Origin: Minisyncoccia bacterium
GTDB taxonomy: Bacteria > Patescibacteriota > Minisyncoccia > Phycocordibacterales > Phycocordibacteraceae
Length of the DNA: 57,113 bases
Assembly: GCA_041485695.1 (NCBI GenBank)
Contig: JBGPJZ010000003.1
Coordinates: forward strand, 1-57,113
Direction: 5' to 3'
How positions within the stretch are numbered: position 1 is the first letter of the stretch; each line of letters starts with the position of its first letter. Both the position numbers and the translations under genes were made by a program. Shown here one piece after another: positions 11,101 through 15,156 of this stretch. The notes under the pieces were generated by a model that was not told the DNA's origin, did not search any database, and saw nothing but the letters and a program-made list of their open reading frames with translations.

Positions 11101-11594
11101 CCCGTTATCGGACCGCCCGGGTTACCGTTGCCGCCGCCGAGGTTAAAGGCGCCACGTGAGATGGGGCCGAAATAACCGACTGCGGGAGCAATGTTCTTAG
11201 ACGACTGCCAAGAAGCAACCGCCGCGCGTGTCTGTGTACCGAAGTACCCAGTCGCACCCGCTGGAATCGAGAAGCCAGCTGCGATGAGCGCTTGCTGGAG
11301 GCAAGTCACGTCAGCACCTTGCGAGCCAATCGTAAGATCACGTGAGAACGCGCAGGCAGTCGAACCGGAGCCGGGGCCAGAAACTGGCGCACCGCCCGTA
11401 AGGGAAGCTTGCACATTCGAGATCGTAGCCGCATCAGCACCGAAGGACTGCAGGAGCGAGATAATCGCTGAAACTTGCGATGCCGTTAGAGCCGAAGCAT
11501 GCGCCATAGGCGCAGCCGCGAGCATCGAGACCGCCATCGTAAGGCCAGTTGCTACTGCAGCAACCTTTGTTGCTACATTCGTAGTTATAGTCAT
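8106..11594 (-). CDS. Large secreted surface (S-layer-like) protein with peptidoglycan-binding domain, 1162 aa
   Basis: Signal peptide (AHA-SA), then QVSAIISLLQSFGAD segment and PG-binding motif DLTIGSQGADVTCLQQAL...TGYFGTQTRAAV, followed by a long Thr/Ser/Ala/Gly-rich beta-type body. Confidence 0.85.
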   Translation of the reverse strand: MTITTNVATKVAAVATGLTMAVSMLAAAPMAHASALTASQVSAIISLLQSFGADAATISNVQASLTGGAPVSGPGSGSTACAFSRDLTIGSQGADVTCLQQALIAAGFSIPAGATGYFGTQTRAAVASWQSSKNIAPAVGYFGPISRGAFNLGGGNGNPGGPITGNGLKVMLASDSPNGTALVQGQASAELAKFTFQNPTGSAVNVTNISFKRFGVSNDATMTNVYLYNGAARLTDSASVSSGAFSFNNPTGLFSVPAGGWITVSVRSDIDASAAGQQIGVQLVSVAATGTLDSSVSLPIMGGLQAVSAATLANVDLAITSSPSATAVDPQADYTVWQNTVTVGTRAVMFKALALRQIGSAQAGDITNYRLYVDGNRVGNAVAAKDANDIITFDLSASPLRLETGGRVIKVVADIVSGASRTFQLSLRYAGDAIFIDTDLNQPILVRGNGSSITAAFAAHTAPATAATINSVTQSAPSISRSADSPTANVSVGASNVKWASFKIIANGEPVKIDNLNVSADTSASALGLDNGKVFLNGVQVGSTKDLAEYGGTTTNFTFGSSFIVPLGQTAVVDIYGDAKTGTSVNLANNETVKIYLGVGASNAQGQISVAAINVPASELTGNQITVSSAALTATKASYYGNQTIIAGAIQAKIGALTLSTGSTEGANVNTIEIGFASAVGSTLTNLTLKNHDTGAMYGTAKSTVGTSNGFTGSVDIPASGTVTFDVYADVKTGANIGAIPATTVTTNTTGTGAITGTSVSVAALGVPTLQTMTVGAATLTVTDNTGSTPDSTNVIAGSQSVKAGVFRFTTQYSQYTIDKLEVIIPSNQATSVANVTIKYLDVNGAQKTATQSLALPTTKTFATATFTGLSFFIPQDNSRDLEVDVSVPTVSSGATSGRGITVGLSANEGFNATDSSGTADTSLTASANLFSNDTGGKGVFYVRKSIASVAAGPAPSSTLGIGTDQVLGRFTVTADAAGDVDWGQVIFSITKSAAITLGATSTVALWDITGGATNVLGTFATTTSAAQAQCATVCDTFGVATPSSTGGSLHFRPNTAQTVPMGTTRTYELRGTVGGTLTSGVYNVNVSLGNPSTTATANNTFLTLAGTYGTSGNASFVWSDWASPTAHAADAGSLAGSATDWTNDFLVKTLPVTLGSRSLQN

Positions 11595-11696
11595 AACAAT
11601 AGTAATTTTTTGTAAGACCCGCCGCTCTGCCAGTTAGTAATAAGGGACAGAGCAGGCGAATCGTTAGAAACTTGGTAATTGTCCCTCGCGTTCGCC

Positions 11697-11712
11697 TCCG
11701 CCAGCTGGCGGA
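11697..11712. repeat. Palindromic element family A (TCCGCCAGCTGGCGGA), intergenic copy
   Basis: Perfect 16-bp palindrome at the apex of a longer hairpin (about 11683-11728). Near-identical copies at 20680 and 35297. Confidence 0.75.
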
Positions 11713-11998
11713 TGGCGAAACGCTCGGGATCGAGTTGTCATAGCACGTGTATTTGCATCTGTATCAGCACATTTCACACTACCTCACAGGGCGCGGTATC
11801 GACCTGCGTCCCATGAGTTAGTTGGTAAGGTTTAAGGCGTAAAACCGTGCATCCGTCGCAGGAAATTCTTCCGTAGCGGAAAAAATACTGTGGCTTCCAA
11901 GGGCCACTATTCAATTATCAAAGACCCGCCCCAGGGATGGTCATCCGCAAGGACTGCGAATGAGTATAGCGGAAATGAGGCATTCCCGGGGTTTCTAG

Positions 11999-12007
11999 TG
12001 TGGATAA
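11999..12007 (-). promoter_or_regulatory. Perfect DnaA box (TTATCCACA)
   Basis: tgtggataa on the plus strand. Confidence 0.6.
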
Positions 12008-12107
12008 CGACAAATAGACCGTTTCCGGTCTTTCAGCCAGCACTTAGGCCACAGTCGCTACCACAGACAGGTAGCCTAGCATAAGGCCCTAGGGGCGTCA
12101 AAACCCT

Positions 12108-12857
12108 TTATATAAGGGAGTAGGCCGTCCACCTTCGGCTACCTGTCTTTAGTACCACCCCCTCCCGCACCAGCCTCTGGAGCTCGCGCTGTATCGTTTT
12201 CTCGCTTATGTCGCGCACAATGGTGGAAATGTCCTTTATATACACGCTCCCCTTATGTTTTAAGACCGATAGTATAGCGTCACGCCGGAGACCCGTGTCC
12301 TTAATGTCCGATATGTGTCCTTTATCAAAACGGGAGCTCTTTGGCACTCGTACCGCCTTCTCGCGGGGAGGGCTCCCGTGCTTGCCAGCGCTTTTGGCGA
12401 GATCGGCTAGGGTAGGGGAGTCATCAAGGAAAAGCCGCGGCTCTTCATAAGCTGCAACTTCAGCGAGGAGCGCGTGAGCTTCGTCTGCAATCAAAGCCGC
12501 ATTCATATGCGAAAGCAAACCGCCTGACCGAGCAATCGCAAGCACGCTTGAAAGTGCAAGAAGCTCCCGAGAAAAGGCCTCTTTGGCGGAGGCAGGCGGC
12601 AGGATAGCGGCATCAATAAGTCCTACGGCAATACTGTCGAGCTTGTCCTTAAGGGACGTGCTGACGGCAAACGCCGGCGTGATGAGATGAATCGCTTTCG
12701 CAAGTCGTTCTGTCTTTTTATAAAGATAAACCCGCTGTATGTCCTTTTCAAAGATGTTAGAGAATATACTTTTTTCTAAGACAAAATCATTATTATGAGT
12801 AGTAGTGCCCTTTATCTGGGATATCCGAGTTTCTCCAATGTGTCCTTTATCAGGCAT
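12108..12857 (-). CDS. Hypothetical protein with C-terminal DeoR-like winged HTH
   Basis: RRDAILSVLKHKGSVYIKDIS...SEKTIQRELQRLVREGVV C-terminus. Helical N-terminal part. Confidence 0.8.
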   Translation of the reverse strand: MPDKGHIGETRISQIKGTTTHNNDFVLEKSIFSNIFEKDIQRVYLYKKTERLAKAIHLITPAFAVSTSLKDKLDSIAVGLIDAAILPPASAKEAFSRELLALSSVLAIARSGGLLSHMNAALIADEAHALLAEVAAYEEPRLFLDDSPTLADLAKSAGKHGSPPREKAVRVPKSSRFDKGHISDIKDTGLRRDAILSVLKHKGSVYIKDISTIVRDISEKTIQRELQRLVREGVVLKTGSRRWTAYSLI

Positions 12858-12873
12858 TGCTTTATAAAGGACA
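12230..12873. repeat. Cluster of TGTCCTTT(A)-type motifs in and just upstream of the HTH gene
   Basis: Exact TGTCCTTTA at 12230, 12316 and 12841, inverted at 12865-12873. Variants at 12296, 12644, 12740 and 12806. Confidence 0.7.
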
Positions 12874-12939
12874 TTATAAACCCGCGGCTATTCTATGCAA
12901 GGAGCGTGTTAGCCGAAGCTCCCCTGCCCCGCAAAATAG

Positions 12940-12948
12940 TTATCCACA
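12940..12948 (+). promoter_or_regulatory. Perfect DnaA box overlapping the ftsK promoter
   Basis: TTATCCACA directly 5' of the extended -10 TGcTACAAT (12950-12958). Confidence 0.65.
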
Positions 12949-12969
12949 GTGCTACAATACGCTCATTCT

Positions 12970-15156
12970 ATGAGGCGCCAAAACGGTAATCGACGTCGCG
13001 AAGAAGAGGTCGAGTCGTATGACGCGCTCATCCGCTGGTCATCTGCAATTGTACTCGTTGCCTGTGGCATCATCTTGGGTCTTGCGGCGTTTGGCGACGC
13101 TGGCCCCTTGGGCGACACCCTCTTCTCTCTTGCCTACTCTATCGTTGGCCTTGGTGCCTTCCTCTTGCCGATGGGGCTTATCGCGGTCGGTGCATATGCT
13201 GGGTTTGGGAGGCCTGCTATTGCCCCGCTTACGGGCTCGGGTATCTTAATTATTCTTGCCTCAGTGCTCGCCTTTGCAGGCCTCTTCCCTGTTGCAGATT
13301 TTGGAGGGCTCGCTGGGGAAAAAGTTGGAGCGCTCCTTGAAGGGTTCTTCGGCTTTTGGGGTGCCGCTGTTCTCCTCACCGCCCTCATCGCAATCGGCCT
13401 TGCTCTCGTAAGTGACATTGAAGCTGTTGGGGCGCTCCTGCTGCGCGCGTGGCAGGCTCTCTTCTCTCGAGCGAGCGAGCTCCGAGAGTCCTTCTCTCTC
13501 TCGGATTCCGACGTGAACGAGGAGGCCGATGCGGAGGGCACGGGAGCCCATGAGGACGCGCCTGAAGATGAGCTCTCCAGTGAGCACGAACCGATGGTGA
13601 CCGTTTTCAACCAACCTTCTTTTGGAGGCGCTAGAGCTGCTCCCGTCATCCGTAATTTTGACGGCGAATACGACCCTCCTCCGCTTTCGCTCTTAGGCGA
13701 AGACCGCGGCAAACCCGGCGTGGGCGACATCAAGGCGAATGCCAATATCATTAAAAGGACTTTTCAAAACTTCGGCATCAATGTCGAAATGGATGAGGTC
13801 TCGGTGGGCCCCACGGTTACCCGTTACGCGATTAAGCCAGCAGAGGGAGTCCGGCTCTCAAAGATTGTCTCTTTGCAAAACAACCTCGAGCTCGCGCTTG
13901 CAGCGCATCCGGTGCGCATCGAGGCGCCCATCCCCGGTAAATCGCTGGTTGGCATTGAGGTGCCTAACACGACAAAAGCGATGGTCGGGCTCGGCGGCAT
14001 CCTCTCTGCTCCCGAATGGAGCGCGAATAAAAAACCCTTGCTCGCCGCCCTCGGCCGAGACATCAGCGGGACGCCCCACTACGTTAACATCGCCAAGATG
14101 CCGCACGGCCTTGTCGCTGGCGCAACCGGCTCTGGCAAGTCGGTCGCGATACATTCCATTATCACCTCGCTCCTGTACCGCAATGGCCCCAACCAGCTGC
14201 GCTTCATCATGATTGACCCGAAGCGGGTCGAGTTGACGGCGTACAACGGCATCCCGCATCTCCTCACCCCAGTCATCACCGACCCGAAGAAGAGCATCTT
14301 CGCCTTGAAGTGGGCGGCAAAAGAAATGGAGCGGCGCTACAATATCCTTGAAGCTGAAGGCGTGCGCGACGTCGAAAGTTACCACGCTACAGTGGCAGAG
14401 CCCGCAAAAAAGCGCCGAGAAGATGAGCTGCCCGAGACACTGCCCTACATCGTCATCATCATCGACGAGCTCGCCGACATCATGTCGAGCTACCCGCGCG
14501 AGCTCGAGGCCGCAATCGTACGGCTTGCTCAAATGTCGCGTGCGGTCGGCATCCACCTCGTGCTCTCGACCCAACGCCCGTCGGTGAACATCATCACGGG
14601 ACTTATTAAGGCCAATGTGCCGACACGGCTTGCCTTACAGGTTGCTTCACAGATAGACTCTCGCACCATCCTCGACCAAGGCGGCGCCGAGACCCTGCTT
14701 GGCGCTGGCGATATGCTCTACCTTTCAAGCGATATGCAAAAGCCGGTGCGTATCCAAACCGCCTACATAAGCGAGCAGGAGGTGAAAAAGATCGTGCGGT
14801 ACATCAAAGAACATAACGCCGGCGACCTCACTTCAATCGACATGGGTGGCAATGCCGCGAGTACAGAGCCAAATGACGTCATCTCGCTTATGAGCGGCGA
14901 CTTCGACGACGATGAGATCGATGATGACCTCTACCAGGGGGCAAAGCAGGCCGTTGAGGAAGTCGGGCGCGCCTCGACCTCATATCTCCAACGCAAGCTC
15001 CGCATCGGCTACTCCCGCGCTGCCCGCCTCATGGATGTTCTCGAAGCAAAAGGAGTTATCGGCCCAGCAGACGGCGCGAAGCCCCGCGAGATACTTTCTG
15101 TCGGAGGCGCTCACGGCGCTGTAGGTACTGAAGAGAGCCCTCCAGACGAAGTGTAA
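12970..15156 (+). CDS. ftsK: FtsK/SpoIIIE DNA translocase
   Basis: 4 N-terminal TMs, Walker A GATGSGKS, IIIDELADIM, TQRPS, and gamma domain LQRKLRIGYSRAARLMD. Start set at MRRQN. Confidence 0.96.
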   Translation: MRRQNGNRRREEEVESYDALIRWSSAIVLVACGIILGLAAFGDAGPLGDTLFSLAYSIVGLGAFLLPMGLIAVGAYAGFGRPAIAPLTGSGILIILASVLAFAGLFPVADFGGLAGEKVGALLEGFFGFWGAAVLLTALIAIGLALVSDIEAVGALLLRAWQALFSRASELRESFSLSDSDVNEEADAEGTGAHEDAPEDELSSEHEPMVTVFNQPSFGGARAAPVIRNFDGEYDPPPLSLLGEDRGKPGVGDIKANANIIKRTFQNFGINVEMDEVSVGPTVTRYAIKPAEGVRLSKIVSLQNNLELALAAHPVRIEAPIPGKSLVGIEVPNTTKAMVGLGGILSAPEWSANKKPLLAALGRDISGTPHYVNIAKMPHGLVAGATGSGKSVAIHSIITSLLYRNGPNQLRFIMIDPKRVELTAYNGIPHLLTPVITDPKKSIFALKWAAKEMERRYNILEAEGVRDVESYHATVAEPAKKRREDELPETLPYIVIIIDELADIMSSYPRELEAAIVRLAQMSRAVGIHLVLSTQRPSVNIITGLIKANVPTRLALQVASQIDSRTILDQGGAETLLGAGDMLYLSSDMQKPVRIQTAYISEQEVKKIVRYIKEHNAGDLTSIDMGGNAASTEPNDVISLMSGDFDDDEIDDDLYQGAKQAVEEVGRASTSYLQRKLRIGYSRAARLMDVLEAKGVIGPADGAKPREILSVGGAHGAVGTEESPPDEV

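Follow-up and report, generated by a model that had tools for sequence, protein, structure and literature searches.

The locus lies in a window of 57,113 nt (the whole stretch of DNA that was analysed). It is centred on a gene for a regulator of 249 amino acids, which stands divergently to ftsK on one side and is followed on the other by a long non-coding leader or RNA region and a gene for a large surface protein (Table 1). Upstream, ftsK was found in divergent orientation in 96 of 98 loci, in support of the divergence described in an earlier note on this DNA and of its persistence among orthologues. Downstream, 95 of the 98 have a homologue of the surface-protein gene on the strand of the regulator. 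Translation of ftsK probably starts at the ATG at 12970 and not at the GTG at 12949. Within the leader region, the block at 11766-11833 has ~80% identity in nearly all orthologues (blastn), while Rfam gave no match at E ≤ 1 for positions 11500-13050 of the window. The gene order of this conserved trio, consisting of ftsK, the regulator and the leader with its giant peptidoglycan-binding surface protein, points to a function in the control of division or of the cell envelope.

DnaA-box-like words flank the regulator gene, as had been suggested, and are better conserved on one side than on the other. Exact copies of TTATCCACA, a DnaA-box-like word, are present on both sides, at 12940 (+) and 11999 (-), but the copy on the ftsK side is lineage-specific, with the equivalent position exact in only 3/64 orthologues and near-exact in ~5. 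The downstream copy is exact in 62/64 orthologues, at 54-318 nt past the stop codon. It always has the orientation of the gene and lies 29-32 nt ahead of TATACT. This spacing is that of an activator site, and by its position the downstream TTATCCACA belongs to the predicted promoter of the next transcription unit. The contig that carries dnaA has no exact TTATCCACA.

Table 1. Features of the regulator locus, in window coordinates
Feature	Position	Strand	Description and basis
ftsK	12970..15156	+	Divergent neighbour; Pfam FtsK_SpoIIIE, alpha, gamma and 4TM domains
DnaA-box-like TTATCCACA	12940..12948	+	Exact; 4 nt upstream of the ftsK -10 (TACAAT, 12953-12958, read from sequence)
Predicted -35 hexamer (TTGCAT), regulator promoter	12895..12900	-	Read from sequence
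Predicted -10 hexamer (TATAAT), regulator promoter	12873..12878	-	Read from sequence
Site S0	12865..12873	.	Exact copy; reads TGTCCTTTA in gene orientation
CDS, 249-aa regulator	12108..12857	-	ORF; >1400 homologues; AlphaFold2 model; marginal Pfam HTH_DeoR
Site S1	12841..12849	.	Exact copy, sense TAAAGGACA; codons 3-6, DKGH; inverted partner of S0
One-mismatch copy	12806..12814	.	TAAAGGGCA; IKG; within disordered tail
Inverted site S2 position	12777..12785	.	Codons 25-28, FVLE; orthologue consensus TTTTGTCCTAGAA
Site S3	12740..12748	.	One-mismatch copy, AAAAGGACA; codons 37-40, EKDI
One-mismatch copy	12644..12652	.	TTAAGGACA; LKD; within bundle domain
Site array S4	12296..12324	.	Linker; TAAAGGACA at 12316 (DKGH) and TTAAGGACA at 12296 (IKD)
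Site S5	12230..12238	.	Exact copy, TAAAGGACA; codons 207-209, YIKDIS; start of HTH
Conserved predicted promoter, next transcription unit	11963..12007	-	TTATCCACA (12007-11999), 30 nt, TATACT (11968-11963)
Long non-coding leader/RNA region	11595..11962	-	Between regulator and surface-protein gene; conserved block 11766-11833
Surface-protein gene, 1162 aa	8106..11594	-	PG_binding_1 domain (Pfam); conserved downstream neighbour

The regulator and its family

The regulator is laid out as a disordered tail (residues 1-28), a four-helix bundle (29-136), a disordered linker of ~45 residues (141-185) and a winged HTH domain (wHTH, 188-248). The AlphaFold2 model gave pLDDT values >90 in the bundle and of 84-90 in the wHTH. 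The latter is built of helices 188-202, 207-213 and 219-232 and strands 235-238 and 245-248. This is the H-H-H-beta-hairpin arrangement of the winged-helix (ArsR/MarR/BlaI-like) fold, and Foldseek agreed with this assignment. The earlier description of the protein as a winged HTH is further backed by a Pfam match to HTH_DeoR (PF08220) at residues 191-238, marginal at 21.2 bits against a cut-off of 21. Foldseek matched the wHTH to generic repressors, including MecI, BlaI, AntR, HlyU and AspA, with TM 0.44-0.9 over ~60 residues. The bundle resembles a 23S-IVS-type four-helix bundle (2rld, TM 0.61, E 0.02). Foldseek found no full-length structural analogue, and a sequence search of the PDB with the regulator returned only noise, mainly calmodulin at E>0.06. 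Neither a DeoR_C effector/oligomerisation domain nor a Rep domain was matched in Pfam or NCBIfam, and Pfam gave no match to a ParB N-terminal (PF02195) or MatP-like domain.

The family is present in 185 of the 201 genomes of its order, which belongs to the ultra-small CPR bacteria, as a single-copy chromosomal gene. SEKTIQRE is invariant in the family alignment, and recurs inside CSEKTIQRELxxL in orthologues of ~30% identity that keep the same word. An internal start before the wHTH was considered and rejected, since the alignment has no conserved Met there. Targeted literature searches found nothing on the family or the word, and there was nothing relevant among the top results of a broader search.

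The repeated word and its conservation

The word TGTCCTTTA occurs exactly at only four positions in the whole window, at 12230, 12316 and 12841 on the plus strand and at 12865 on the minus strand, compared to an expected number of 0.21; none of 100 shuffles reached four. Copies with one mismatch start at 12296, 12644, 12740 and 12806, all on the plus strand, and the eight copies together span 12230-12873. These are the four exact and four near copies that the earlier note had reported. Its other observations on their layout were likewise reproduced: the copies at 12841 and 12865 form an inverted pair bracketing the ATG (12855-12857), and coding copies are translated in two frames, as DKGH in frame 0 and as IKG, EKD, LKD or IKD in frame +2. 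Among 64 orthologues, the word is a non-palindromic 9-11-mer with the consensus tATAAAGGACA.

In the genome as a whole (619,902 bp) there are 11 exact copies, four at the regulator gene and five in a second cluster; the word forms only these two clusters. With up to one mismatch, the regulator gene is the densest 800-bp window genome-wide, with 8 copies against 4 in the runner-up. Lone exact copies at C1:121552 and C6:10568 and pairs of near copies at C7:6225, C6:34011 and C5:36736 were considered and rejected: they arise by chance where peptides like HIKDK and DDKGQ are encoded.

Across the 64 orthologues, the word recurs at fixed places and in both orientations: over the -10 and start of the predicted promoter, and at five to six points within the coding sequence. 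At S1, GATAAAGGACA is present in 47/64 orthologues, and Gly5 is encoded by GGA in 50/51. S2 is degenerate in this genome (TGTCTTA), whereas TGTCC occurs there in 29/64 orthologues, with Val26 as GTC in 62/64 and Leu27 as CTA or TTA in 58/64. Similar choices were found for Ile31 (ATA, 63/63), for S3 (Glu37 GAA, 48/48; Asp39 GAC, 64/64; Ile40 ATA, 52/63) and for S5 (Ile207 ATA, 51/64; Lys208 AAG, 53/64). The positions of S4 are conserved as well (Lys179 AAA, 48/55; Gly180 GGA, 50/53; Asp184 GAC, 51/54), and in this linker region some orthologues have up to 4-5 tandem copies. The copy at 12644 is not conserved in sense orientation among the 64 orthologues; an inverted core lies nearby (refres 67) in 7/64. 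In contrast to the constrained sites, control codons at invariant residues are used near parity (Tyr46 32/32, Glu50 34/29, Lys155 25/24).

Over the 64 orthologues, the density of the GGACA core is 6.65 per kb within the gene, ~5 per kb across the upstream 150 bp and 0.43 per kb in the flanks. Orthologous genes contain 6.9 cores each, where 3.1 would be expected from their own protein sequence and codon usage. In the gene of the window, synonymous-codon shuffling left a mean of 2.6 copies compared to 7 observed, and 4 of 2000 shuffles reached 7. The earlier note had named amino-acid content as an explanation that would undo its proposal. This accounts for about half of the motif density; the other half comes from codon choice. 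Adjacent cores are most often spaced by 11 bp (32 cases) or 12 bp (20 cases), and the occurrence of the copies in two reading frames follows from this tandem spacing.

The sites under constraint include inverted ones (S2, S6), and synonymous constraint is as strong for the inverted copies S2, S6 and S0 as for sense copies. Because synonymous sites are frozen, in both orientations and in two frames, with tandem copies 11-12 bp apart, the pattern argues for DNA rather than protein as the object of selection. As read from the synonymous sites of the orthologues, DNA-level selection has kept the word across an order of Paceibacteria. For the gene in the window, selection on DNA had been surmised in the earlier note from the two frames.

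Predicted promoters at the two clusters

The promoters and transcription starts discussed here are sequence predictions. The -10 hexamer of the regulator ends 15 nt before the ATG, so that the predicted promoter would give a very short mRNA leader, and there is no Shine-Dalgarno sequence. In 24 orthologues the end of the hexamer is 12-13 nt from the ATG. Orthologue promoters repeat TTGCAx, a 16-17-nt spacer and TATA(A/C)T, followed in close orthologues by GTCCTATA. S0 touches or overlaps the final base of the predicted -10 as well as the expected transcription start. The hexamer is directly followed by GTCC/T in 37/64 orthologues, and an exact core lies within -45 to -1 in 55/64. Orthologues of ~30% identity have TATAAT-GGACA and TATATA(A/G)GACA at this position. 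Hence, a conserved site overlaps the predicted core promoter of the regulator's own gene even in distant orthologues.

The second target, conserved at the level of the genus, has the word inside cca and over the -35 and spacer of a predicted promoter for an unclassified RNA of ~250-300 nt. The block TAAAGGACA-N2-TT(A/G)TCCACA-N3-TGTCCTTTACA-nTGTCCTTTA-N7-TAgTAT was found in 23 of 29 relatives, so arranged that the word brackets a conserved DnaA-box-like TTATCCACA. In the cca copies, GGA encodes Gly in 28/30 cases, compared to 25% over the whole gene, and GAC encodes Asp in 30/30. Rfam had no match for the cca-xth spacer in this genome or in 14 relatives. The RNA has conserved CUCCUUUU and UCUUUC tracts; its pairing with the word was considered and rejected, as it contains no conserved UGUCCUUUA (UGUCC tract). 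In a first sample, sites downstream of cca occurred in 9/9 genomes with the protein and 0/2 without it, but a wider sample gave 3/11 and 4/12. The second target is therefore conserved in nearer families only.

A candidate operator array within its own regulator gene

The explanation that we consider somewhat better than an even chance is that the word (t)ATAAAGGACA serves as an operator in double-stranded DNA, and that the gene is a self-embedded operator array encoding a multivalent autorepressor, with its own product as the presumed binder. The four-helix bundle would oligomerise, and the long flexible linkers would let several wHTH heads each read one monomer site of ~10 bp. Flexibly linked heads would also account for the tolerance of varied spacing and orientation, and for the placement of tandem copies at intervals of one helical turn. 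Occupancy of S0 and S1 would hide the -10 and the start site and cause autorepression. The intragenic copies could add avidity, looping or roadblocks, which would make the feedback tight and dose-sensitive. The KGH and IKD peptides in the disordered tail and linker would then largely be by-products of the DNA word.

The reverse relation, in which the word has no function in the nucleic acid and its density merely follows from peptide repeats (DKGHIKD, IKD) and codon usage, is hardly credible. It is true that KGH/KGQ and IKD peptides are conserved in the family, that ~45% of the observed cores remain after synonymous-codon shuffling, and that chance copies occur in unrelated genes encoding DKGQ or HIKDK. 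Yet, the freezing of synonymous positions coincides exactly with the copies and is absent elsewhere. Conservation also extends to non-coding copies, both upstream of the gene and at the second, intergenic locus, and the copies use two frames and both orientations at one-turn spacing. We also regard it as very unlikely that the copies act in the mRNA, with UAAAGGACA as a repeated RNA motif or Shine-Dalgarno-like element that is bound by a protein or sRNA or forms a hairpin at the start codon. Sense copies do outnumber antisense copies three to one within the gene, AAAGGA is similar to a Shine-Dalgarno sequence, S0 and S1, if both were part of the transcript, could pair over 10 bp around the AUG, and the neighbouring unclassified RNA has the conserved tracts noted above. 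However, that RNA lacks a conserved UGUCCUUUA, and the inverted sites are constrained just as strongly. Moreover, S0 extends into the predicted -10, and transcription is expected to begin at or after it. At the second locus, the copies precede the predicted start site and occupy the -35 and spacer. Finally, a periodicity of 11-12 nt is meaningful on a DNA helix, not on RNA.

Two further alternatives accept that the copies act as DNA. The word could be the site of a different trans-acting factor, such as a DnaA-linked regulator or another of the few transcription factors that these small genomes encode, and the wHTH gene merely the most heavily targeted gene of that factor. This is unlikely, although it would fit the bracketing of TTATCCACA at the second locus, the conservation of TTATCCACA 30 nt upstream of TATACT just past the regulator gene, and the failure of the wider cca sample to tie the word to the protein. 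What speaks for the gene's own product is that copies are invariably most numerous and best conserved on the promoter and body of the wHTH gene itself, a classical signature of autoregulation, and that the recognition helix stays invariant across the same orthologues as the word; in addition, the TTATCCACA box and the word are distinct sequences. The earlier note favoured a centromere-, iteron- or matS-like system that would act in chromosome organisation, segregation or the cell cycle. Our results turned against this view, and we now find it improbable, also when it is widened to a datA-like role in titration and a functional coupling to FtsK. Many phased copies in and around the gene of the binding protein recall parS in spo0J or plasmid parC, the ftsK linkage is deeply conserved, the locus is origin-proximal, and the wHTH matches include the centromere-binding AspA, at the level of a generic fold. 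Against these points, copies coincide with predicted core promoter elements at two loci, this genome has just two clusters, a canonical ParB is encoded elsewhere (C7:5299-5595, and also in all six relatives tested), and no ParA/ParM/TubZ-type or Rep-type partner is adjacent. Neither did the placement along the chromosome bear out an ori or ter element: dnaA lies at a distance of 60-90 kb in five relatives (0.7-1.0 Mb), which places the locus neither at ori nor at ter. The copies are most likely landing sites for the protein's control of its own gene, and nothing we found indicates a role in chromosome segregation.

Proposed multi-operator repression by the regulator would be similar to that of E. 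coli DeoR and LacI/GalR, oligomeric repressors that bind separated operators, some of them distant or intragenic (lac O2), where cooperativity or looping tightens repression. The HTH also scores as marginally DeoR-type. However, it is C-terminal, not N-terminal as in DeoR, and there is no DeoR_C or sugar-binding domain. In addition, the sites are direct or inverted monomer words of ~10 bp instead of 16-bp palindromes, and eight or more of them lie mostly in the regulator's own codons. Residues 188-248 share the fold of ArsR, MarR and BlaI-MecI, but these are compact dimers that read palindromes, whereas here the wHTH hangs on a disordered linker of ~45 residues to a four-helix bundle. Roadblock operators in open reading frames (PurR in purB, CcpA cre sites, CodY) constrain synonymous codons as well, but as single sites in target genes and not as an order-wide array through the regulator's own gene.

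MraZ is a conserved autoregulator linked to cell-division genes, which binds its own promoter as a large oligomer, on short direct repeats that follow each other at roughly one helical turn. Our candidate autoregulator resembles it in its linkage to ftsK, in the presence of sites at its predicted promoter and in the one-turn spacing of its tandem copies. Yet, the fold (AbrB/SpoVT-like in MraZ) and the word are unrelated, and MraZ sites lie upstream, not in coding sequence. For ParB/parS (with parS in spo0J), ParR/parC, omega and AspA, sites in or beside the binder's gene are known, and autoregulation is a further property of the centromere-binding proteins. The wHTH of AspA can be superposed on the C-terminal domain of the regulator, as can those of many other proteins. 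The present system differs from ParB/parS in that the regulator has no ParB N-terminal domain, parS is a 16-bp palindrome accompanied by ParA whereas the word is non-palindromic, the neighbours are ftsK and the surface-protein gene in place of a partition NTPase, and sites overlap predicted promoters at two unrelated loci. Unlike in MatP/matS, the sites are not confined to the terminus, and no domain like the RHH plus coiled-coil of MatP was matched in the protein. Nor was there a match to a Rep initiator of the WH1-WH2 type that binds iterons; the gene is chromosomal and not adjacent to dnaA, and sites overlap predicted promoters.

As far as we know, five or more conserved intragenic sites exceed what an ordinary autorepressor requires, and the array may therefore have a role beyond repression. 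A far-reaching possibility, to which we give little credence at present, is that it serves as a high-capacity nucleation or titration centre, similar to datA or parS. The multivalent protein, with its bundle and tethered wHTH heads, would assemble into a higher-order complex over ~800 bp of this origin-proximal locus and couple the level of free regulator to gene dosage and replication. The invariably linked ftsK and surface-protein genes would in this way be coordinated with the cell cycle, in bacteria where most known division regulators are missing.

Most members of the CPR/Patescibacteria cannot be grown alone, and to our knowledge almost nothing is known of their gene regulation. Here, sequence alone defines a near-universal regulator of one order, a probable DNA word and two probable targets, namely the regulator's own gene and the unclassified structured RNA beside cca. 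The gene also offers a clear example of a coding sequence that has been shaped by a signal in the DNA: the peptides of the tail and linker look like translated operator copies, and spacing by one helical turn pushes the word into two reading frames. This calls for caution in annotation and in evolutionary analyses that take synonymous sites as neutral. The candidate system is testable with synthetic DNA and protein in E. coli.

A conserved DNA word in the regulator gene

The short word TGTCCTTTA, with the core GGACA, occurs four times exactly in the 57-kb window, at 12230, 12316 and 12841 (+) and at 12865 (-), against an expectation of 0.21 copies; no shuffle reached four. The + strand also carries four copies that differ at one base, at 12296, 12644, 12740 and 12806. 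This recovers the four exact and four near copies of the earlier note, as well as its inverted pair around the start codon, because the copies at 12841 and 12865 bracket the ATG of the regulator gene (12108-12857, -; 249 codons). As also described there, the coding copies use two frames, reading DKGH in one and IKG, EKD, LKD or IKD in the next. The whole assembly (12 contigs, 619,902 bp, with the window as contig C3) contains 11 exact copies. Its densest 800-bp window, allowing at most one mismatch, is the regulator gene with 8 copies, while the runner-up has 4. Outside this gene and a second target beside cca, the remaining near-copy pairs and single copies of the genome are chance coding matches.

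We collected 98 distinct orthologous loci and codon-aligned the 64 close ones (about 50-73% identity). The sense core reaches 6.65 per kb in the gene vs 0.43 per kb in the flanks; within the 150 bp ahead of the gene, each strand carries about 5 per kb. The copies keep fixed alignment positions, and synonymous sites are frozen exactly where they sit (see table). At control invariant residues, synonymous sites are saturated (Tyr46 32/32, Glu50 34/29, Lys155 25/24, Asn119 38/26). When synonymous codons were shuffled within each gene, 3.1 cores per gene were expected and 6.9 observed; for the window gene the values were 2.6 and 7, with 4 of 2000 shuffles reaching 7. Hence, amino-acid content, the explanation that the earlier note set against its own claim, accounts for about half of the density, and codon choice for the other half. 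The frozen codons of the 64 orthologues and the conserved non-coding copies bear out its suggestion that selection acts on DNA rather than protein.

Adjacent direct cores are most often 11 bp (32 cases) or 12 bp apart (20 cases), a distance of one helical turn and no multiple of three. Neighbouring copies therefore fall in two frames, as in AAA GGA CAx ATA AAG GAC A, which reads KGH-IKD. The logo consensus of 522 sites is tATAAAGGACA. The richest arrays sit in the disordered tail and linker of the protein, and inverted copies are used at spots that need hydrophobic residues (FVLE, ILSV). The protein thus seems to accommodate the DNA word, not the reverse. Judged from these comparisons, the word is a conserved DNA signal and no mere by-product of peptides.

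Coordinates and conservation of the features (codon counts from the 64 aligned orthologues; L031 numbers a stretch of G000 contig C2)
Feature	Position	Orientation	Sequence	Count or basis
S0 (word copy)	12865-12873	-		
S1 (word copy)	12841-12849; codons 3-6		GATAAAGGACA	47/64
S2	codons 25-27	inverted	TTTTGTCCTAGAA	29/64
S3	codons 37-40		GAAAAGGACATA	
Linker tandem array	codons 176-190			up to four or five copies
S6	codons 196-198	inverted	ATATTGTCCGTTATA	26/64
S5	codons 207-209			
Frozen codon	Gly5		GGA	50/51
Frozen codon	Val26		GTC	62/64
Frozen codon	Ile31		ATA	63/63
Frozen codon	Glu37		GAA	48/48
Frozen codon	Asp39		GAC	64/64
Frozen codon	Lys179		AAA	48/55
Frozen codon	Gly180		GGA	50/53
Frozen codon	Asp184		GAC	51/54
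Predicted regulator promoter		gene's strand	TTGCAT-N16-TATAAT-GTCCTTTATAAAGCA-ATG	read from sequence
cca-side block		opposite cca	TAAAGGACA-N2-TT(A/G)TCCACA-N3-TGTCCTTTACA-nTGTCCTTTA-N7-TAgTAT	
Non-coding RNA unit, cca to xth	L031 7207-7500 = G000 C2:142206-142500	minus		roughly 250-300 nt
Promoter-class copies	window 11963-12007; G000 C1:135785, C2:43345, C8:23274, C2:142534			
Disordered tail	residues 1-28			AlphaFold2
Four-helix bundle	residues 29-136			AlphaFold2, confident, pLDDT above 90
Disordered linker	residues 141-185			AlphaFold2
wHTH	residues 188-248			AlphaFold2

Overlap of the word with two predicted promoters

All promoters, transcription starts and terminators considered here are sequence predictions. 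S0 starts on the last base of the regulator's predicted -10, and this hexamer lies 15 nt ahead of the ATG. In orthologues, TTGCAx, a 16-17-nt spacer and TATA(A/C)T recur, with GTCC(T)ATA directly after the -10 in 37/64 and an exact core at -45..-1 in 55/64. The predicted -10 usually ends only 12-13 nt before the ATG, so that the mRNA would be nearly leaderless. In ~30%-identity orthologues of other families (GC 35-45%), AAGGACA, AAAGACA or TAAAGGA are again the most repeated 7-mers of the gene and the sequence before it, and tandem promoters read TATAAT-GGACA and TTGAC-N17-TATATA(A/G)GACA.

Of the seven exact copies elsewhere in the genome, five lie at C2:140307-142522. The CCA-adding-enzyme gene holds two exact copies and one with a mismatch (SKGHIID...QKDIKDK), whose codons are frozen in 30 relatives (GGA 28/30, compared to 25% gene-wide; GAC 30/30); CAA AAG GAC ATA AAG GAC is kept as well. 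About 330 bp downstream, on the opposite strand, 23/29 relatives share a block in which the word supplies the -35 (TTTACA) and takes up the spacer of a predicted sigma-70-type promoter. This promoter faces the non-coding stretch between cca and xth, which is closed by a predicted terminator. The putative RNA has compensatory hairpins (e.g., GCGG-CGAU-CCGC vs CAGGAUGAUUCCUG), conserved CACCAUC and GCCCCUGCUCCUUUU tracts, and repeated UCUUUC tracts close to its 5' end; no Rfam match was found in 15 genomes. Within the genus, these comparisons show the word on this one further promoter. Sites on the cca side occurred in 9/9 genomes with the protein vs 0/2 without it in a first sample, and in 3/11 vs 4/12 in a wider one. 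This co-occurrence does not tie the word to the protein and shows only that the cca-side target is confined to nearer families.

In many relatives (L122-L149), one to three TTCCACGTGGAA-type palindromes, absent from the window, stand right behind the RNA terminator. At C2:140307 (L031 5300-5320), a site flanked by a YraN-like gene and two tRNA genes, TGTCCTTTA is present in exact form and joined directly to a box-like word (TGTCCTTTATCCCCA); six relatives have near-copies at this position.

Neighbouring genes and DnaA-box-like words

The divergence from ftsK described in the earlier note, which asked whether orthologues stay linked, is kept in 96/98 loci. A PG_binding_1 surface protein comes next on the same strand in 95/98, after about 500 non-coding bases, and both linkages extend to ~30%-identity orthologues. 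The flanking DnaA boxes claimed in the note are present as exact TTATCCACA at 12940 and 11999, but they differ in conservation. The downstream word is exact in 62/64 orthologues, 54-318 nt past the stop codon, always in the gene's orientation and 29-32 nt upstream of TATACT; because of this fixed distance it belongs to the predicted promoter of the next unit. The ftsK-side word, 4 nt ahead of the ftsK TACAAT, is exact in only 3/64. TATACT is followed by a conserved hairpin-forming RNA start (AGUCCUUGCGGGGAC...GUUCCCCGAAGGGCGUACUUUGAUAACUGAAUAGU) and a conserved 65-nt block (11766-11833) that is about 80% identical in almost every orthologue. Across the orthologues, cores are enriched only some 2.5-fold downstream of the regulator gene.

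Several further observations concern these surroundings. A promoter class, (T/A)TATCC(A/C)CA-N29-32-TATACT/TACAAT, has no good -35 and carries the box consensus where an activator site is expected; it may represent a regulon of these reduced genomes that depends on DnaA or on another activator. A non-coding leader or RNA region of roughly 370 nt (11595-11962), without an Rfam match, precedes the giant surface-protein gene, with a conserved hairpin right after TATACT and then a terminator-like one (about 11875-11905). The inverted repeat GGGACA-N35-TGTCCC (11641-11690), 45-95 bp before the surface-protein ATG, resembles the word core. The ftsK start is probably ATG 12970, not GTG 12949 of the ORF list, and TACAAT (12953-12958) lies 11 nt ahead of it. 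With both -10s so near their ATGs, the two divergent genes apparently have very short leaders without Shine-Dalgarno sequences. The contig end cuts into a 23S rRNA gene at 1-2043. Among relatives, several large contigs likewise start 3-15 kb from the regulator gene, which may reflect assembly breaks at a nearby rRNA operon, not origin proximity.

The regulator and its possible mode of action

The regulator's C-terminus is a marginal match to a DeoR-type HTH, and the AlphaFold2 model and fold matches agree with the winged HTH of the earlier note. With Foldseek, the wHTH superposes on MecI, BlaI, ArsR-type and AspA domains and the bundle weakly on a 23S-IVS-type four-helix protein, while no full-length analogue was found; a sequence search of solved structures gave no relative. 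Around the recognition helix, CSEKTIQRELxxL stays practically unchanged down to ~30%-identity orthologues. The >1400 homologues, mostly unnamed or labelled 'ArsR/DeoR family', all come from Parcubacteria/Paceibacteria-type assemblies. A profile search detected the family in 185/201 genomes and 139/150 genera of its order, beyond which matches cover the wHTH only. The searchable literature yielded no account of either the family or the word.

The comparative evidence shows the word to be a selected double-stranded-DNA element concentrated on the regulator's promoter and body, and we infer that the regulator's own product binds it. That this product is a multivalent autorepressor, reading an operator array inside its own gene, seems to us the probable explanation. 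An oligomerising bundle with wHTH heads on 45-residue flexible tethers would allow multivalent reading of monomer sites, and the mix of direct copies (11-12 bp) and inverted ones (20-62 bp) fits such a tethered architecture. Protein bound at S0 and S1 would occlude the -10 and start site, and the intragenic copies could add avidity, looping or roadblocks.

Binding of the word by some other factor is unlikely. Still more doubtful is the centromere-, titration- or organisation-type role favoured by the earlier note: the locus is origin-proximal, at neither ori nor ter, with dnaA 60-90 kb away in five relatives and ParB encoded elsewhere in the genome, and the copies sit on core promoters, which speaks against a chromosome organisation, segregation or terminus module. 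We consider an RNA-level motif very improbable, since inverted copies are under constraint, copies lie upstream of predicted transcription starts and the spacing shows DNA helical phasing. A pure peptide by-product is scarcely credible, as the codon data and the non-coding copies contradict it.

In its way of working, the proposed autorepressor resembles the multi-operator autorepressors DeoR and LacI with O2, as well as MraZ, with its phased repeats next to division genes, and centromere-binding autorepressors. It would not belong to DeoR, however, because its HTH is at the wrong end and a DeoR_C domain is lacking. Membership of the ParB, MatP and Rep groups was tried and rejected. What appears to be new is that a probable autoregulatory operator array runs through the coding sequence of the regulator itself and is kept throughout one order of CPR bacteria.
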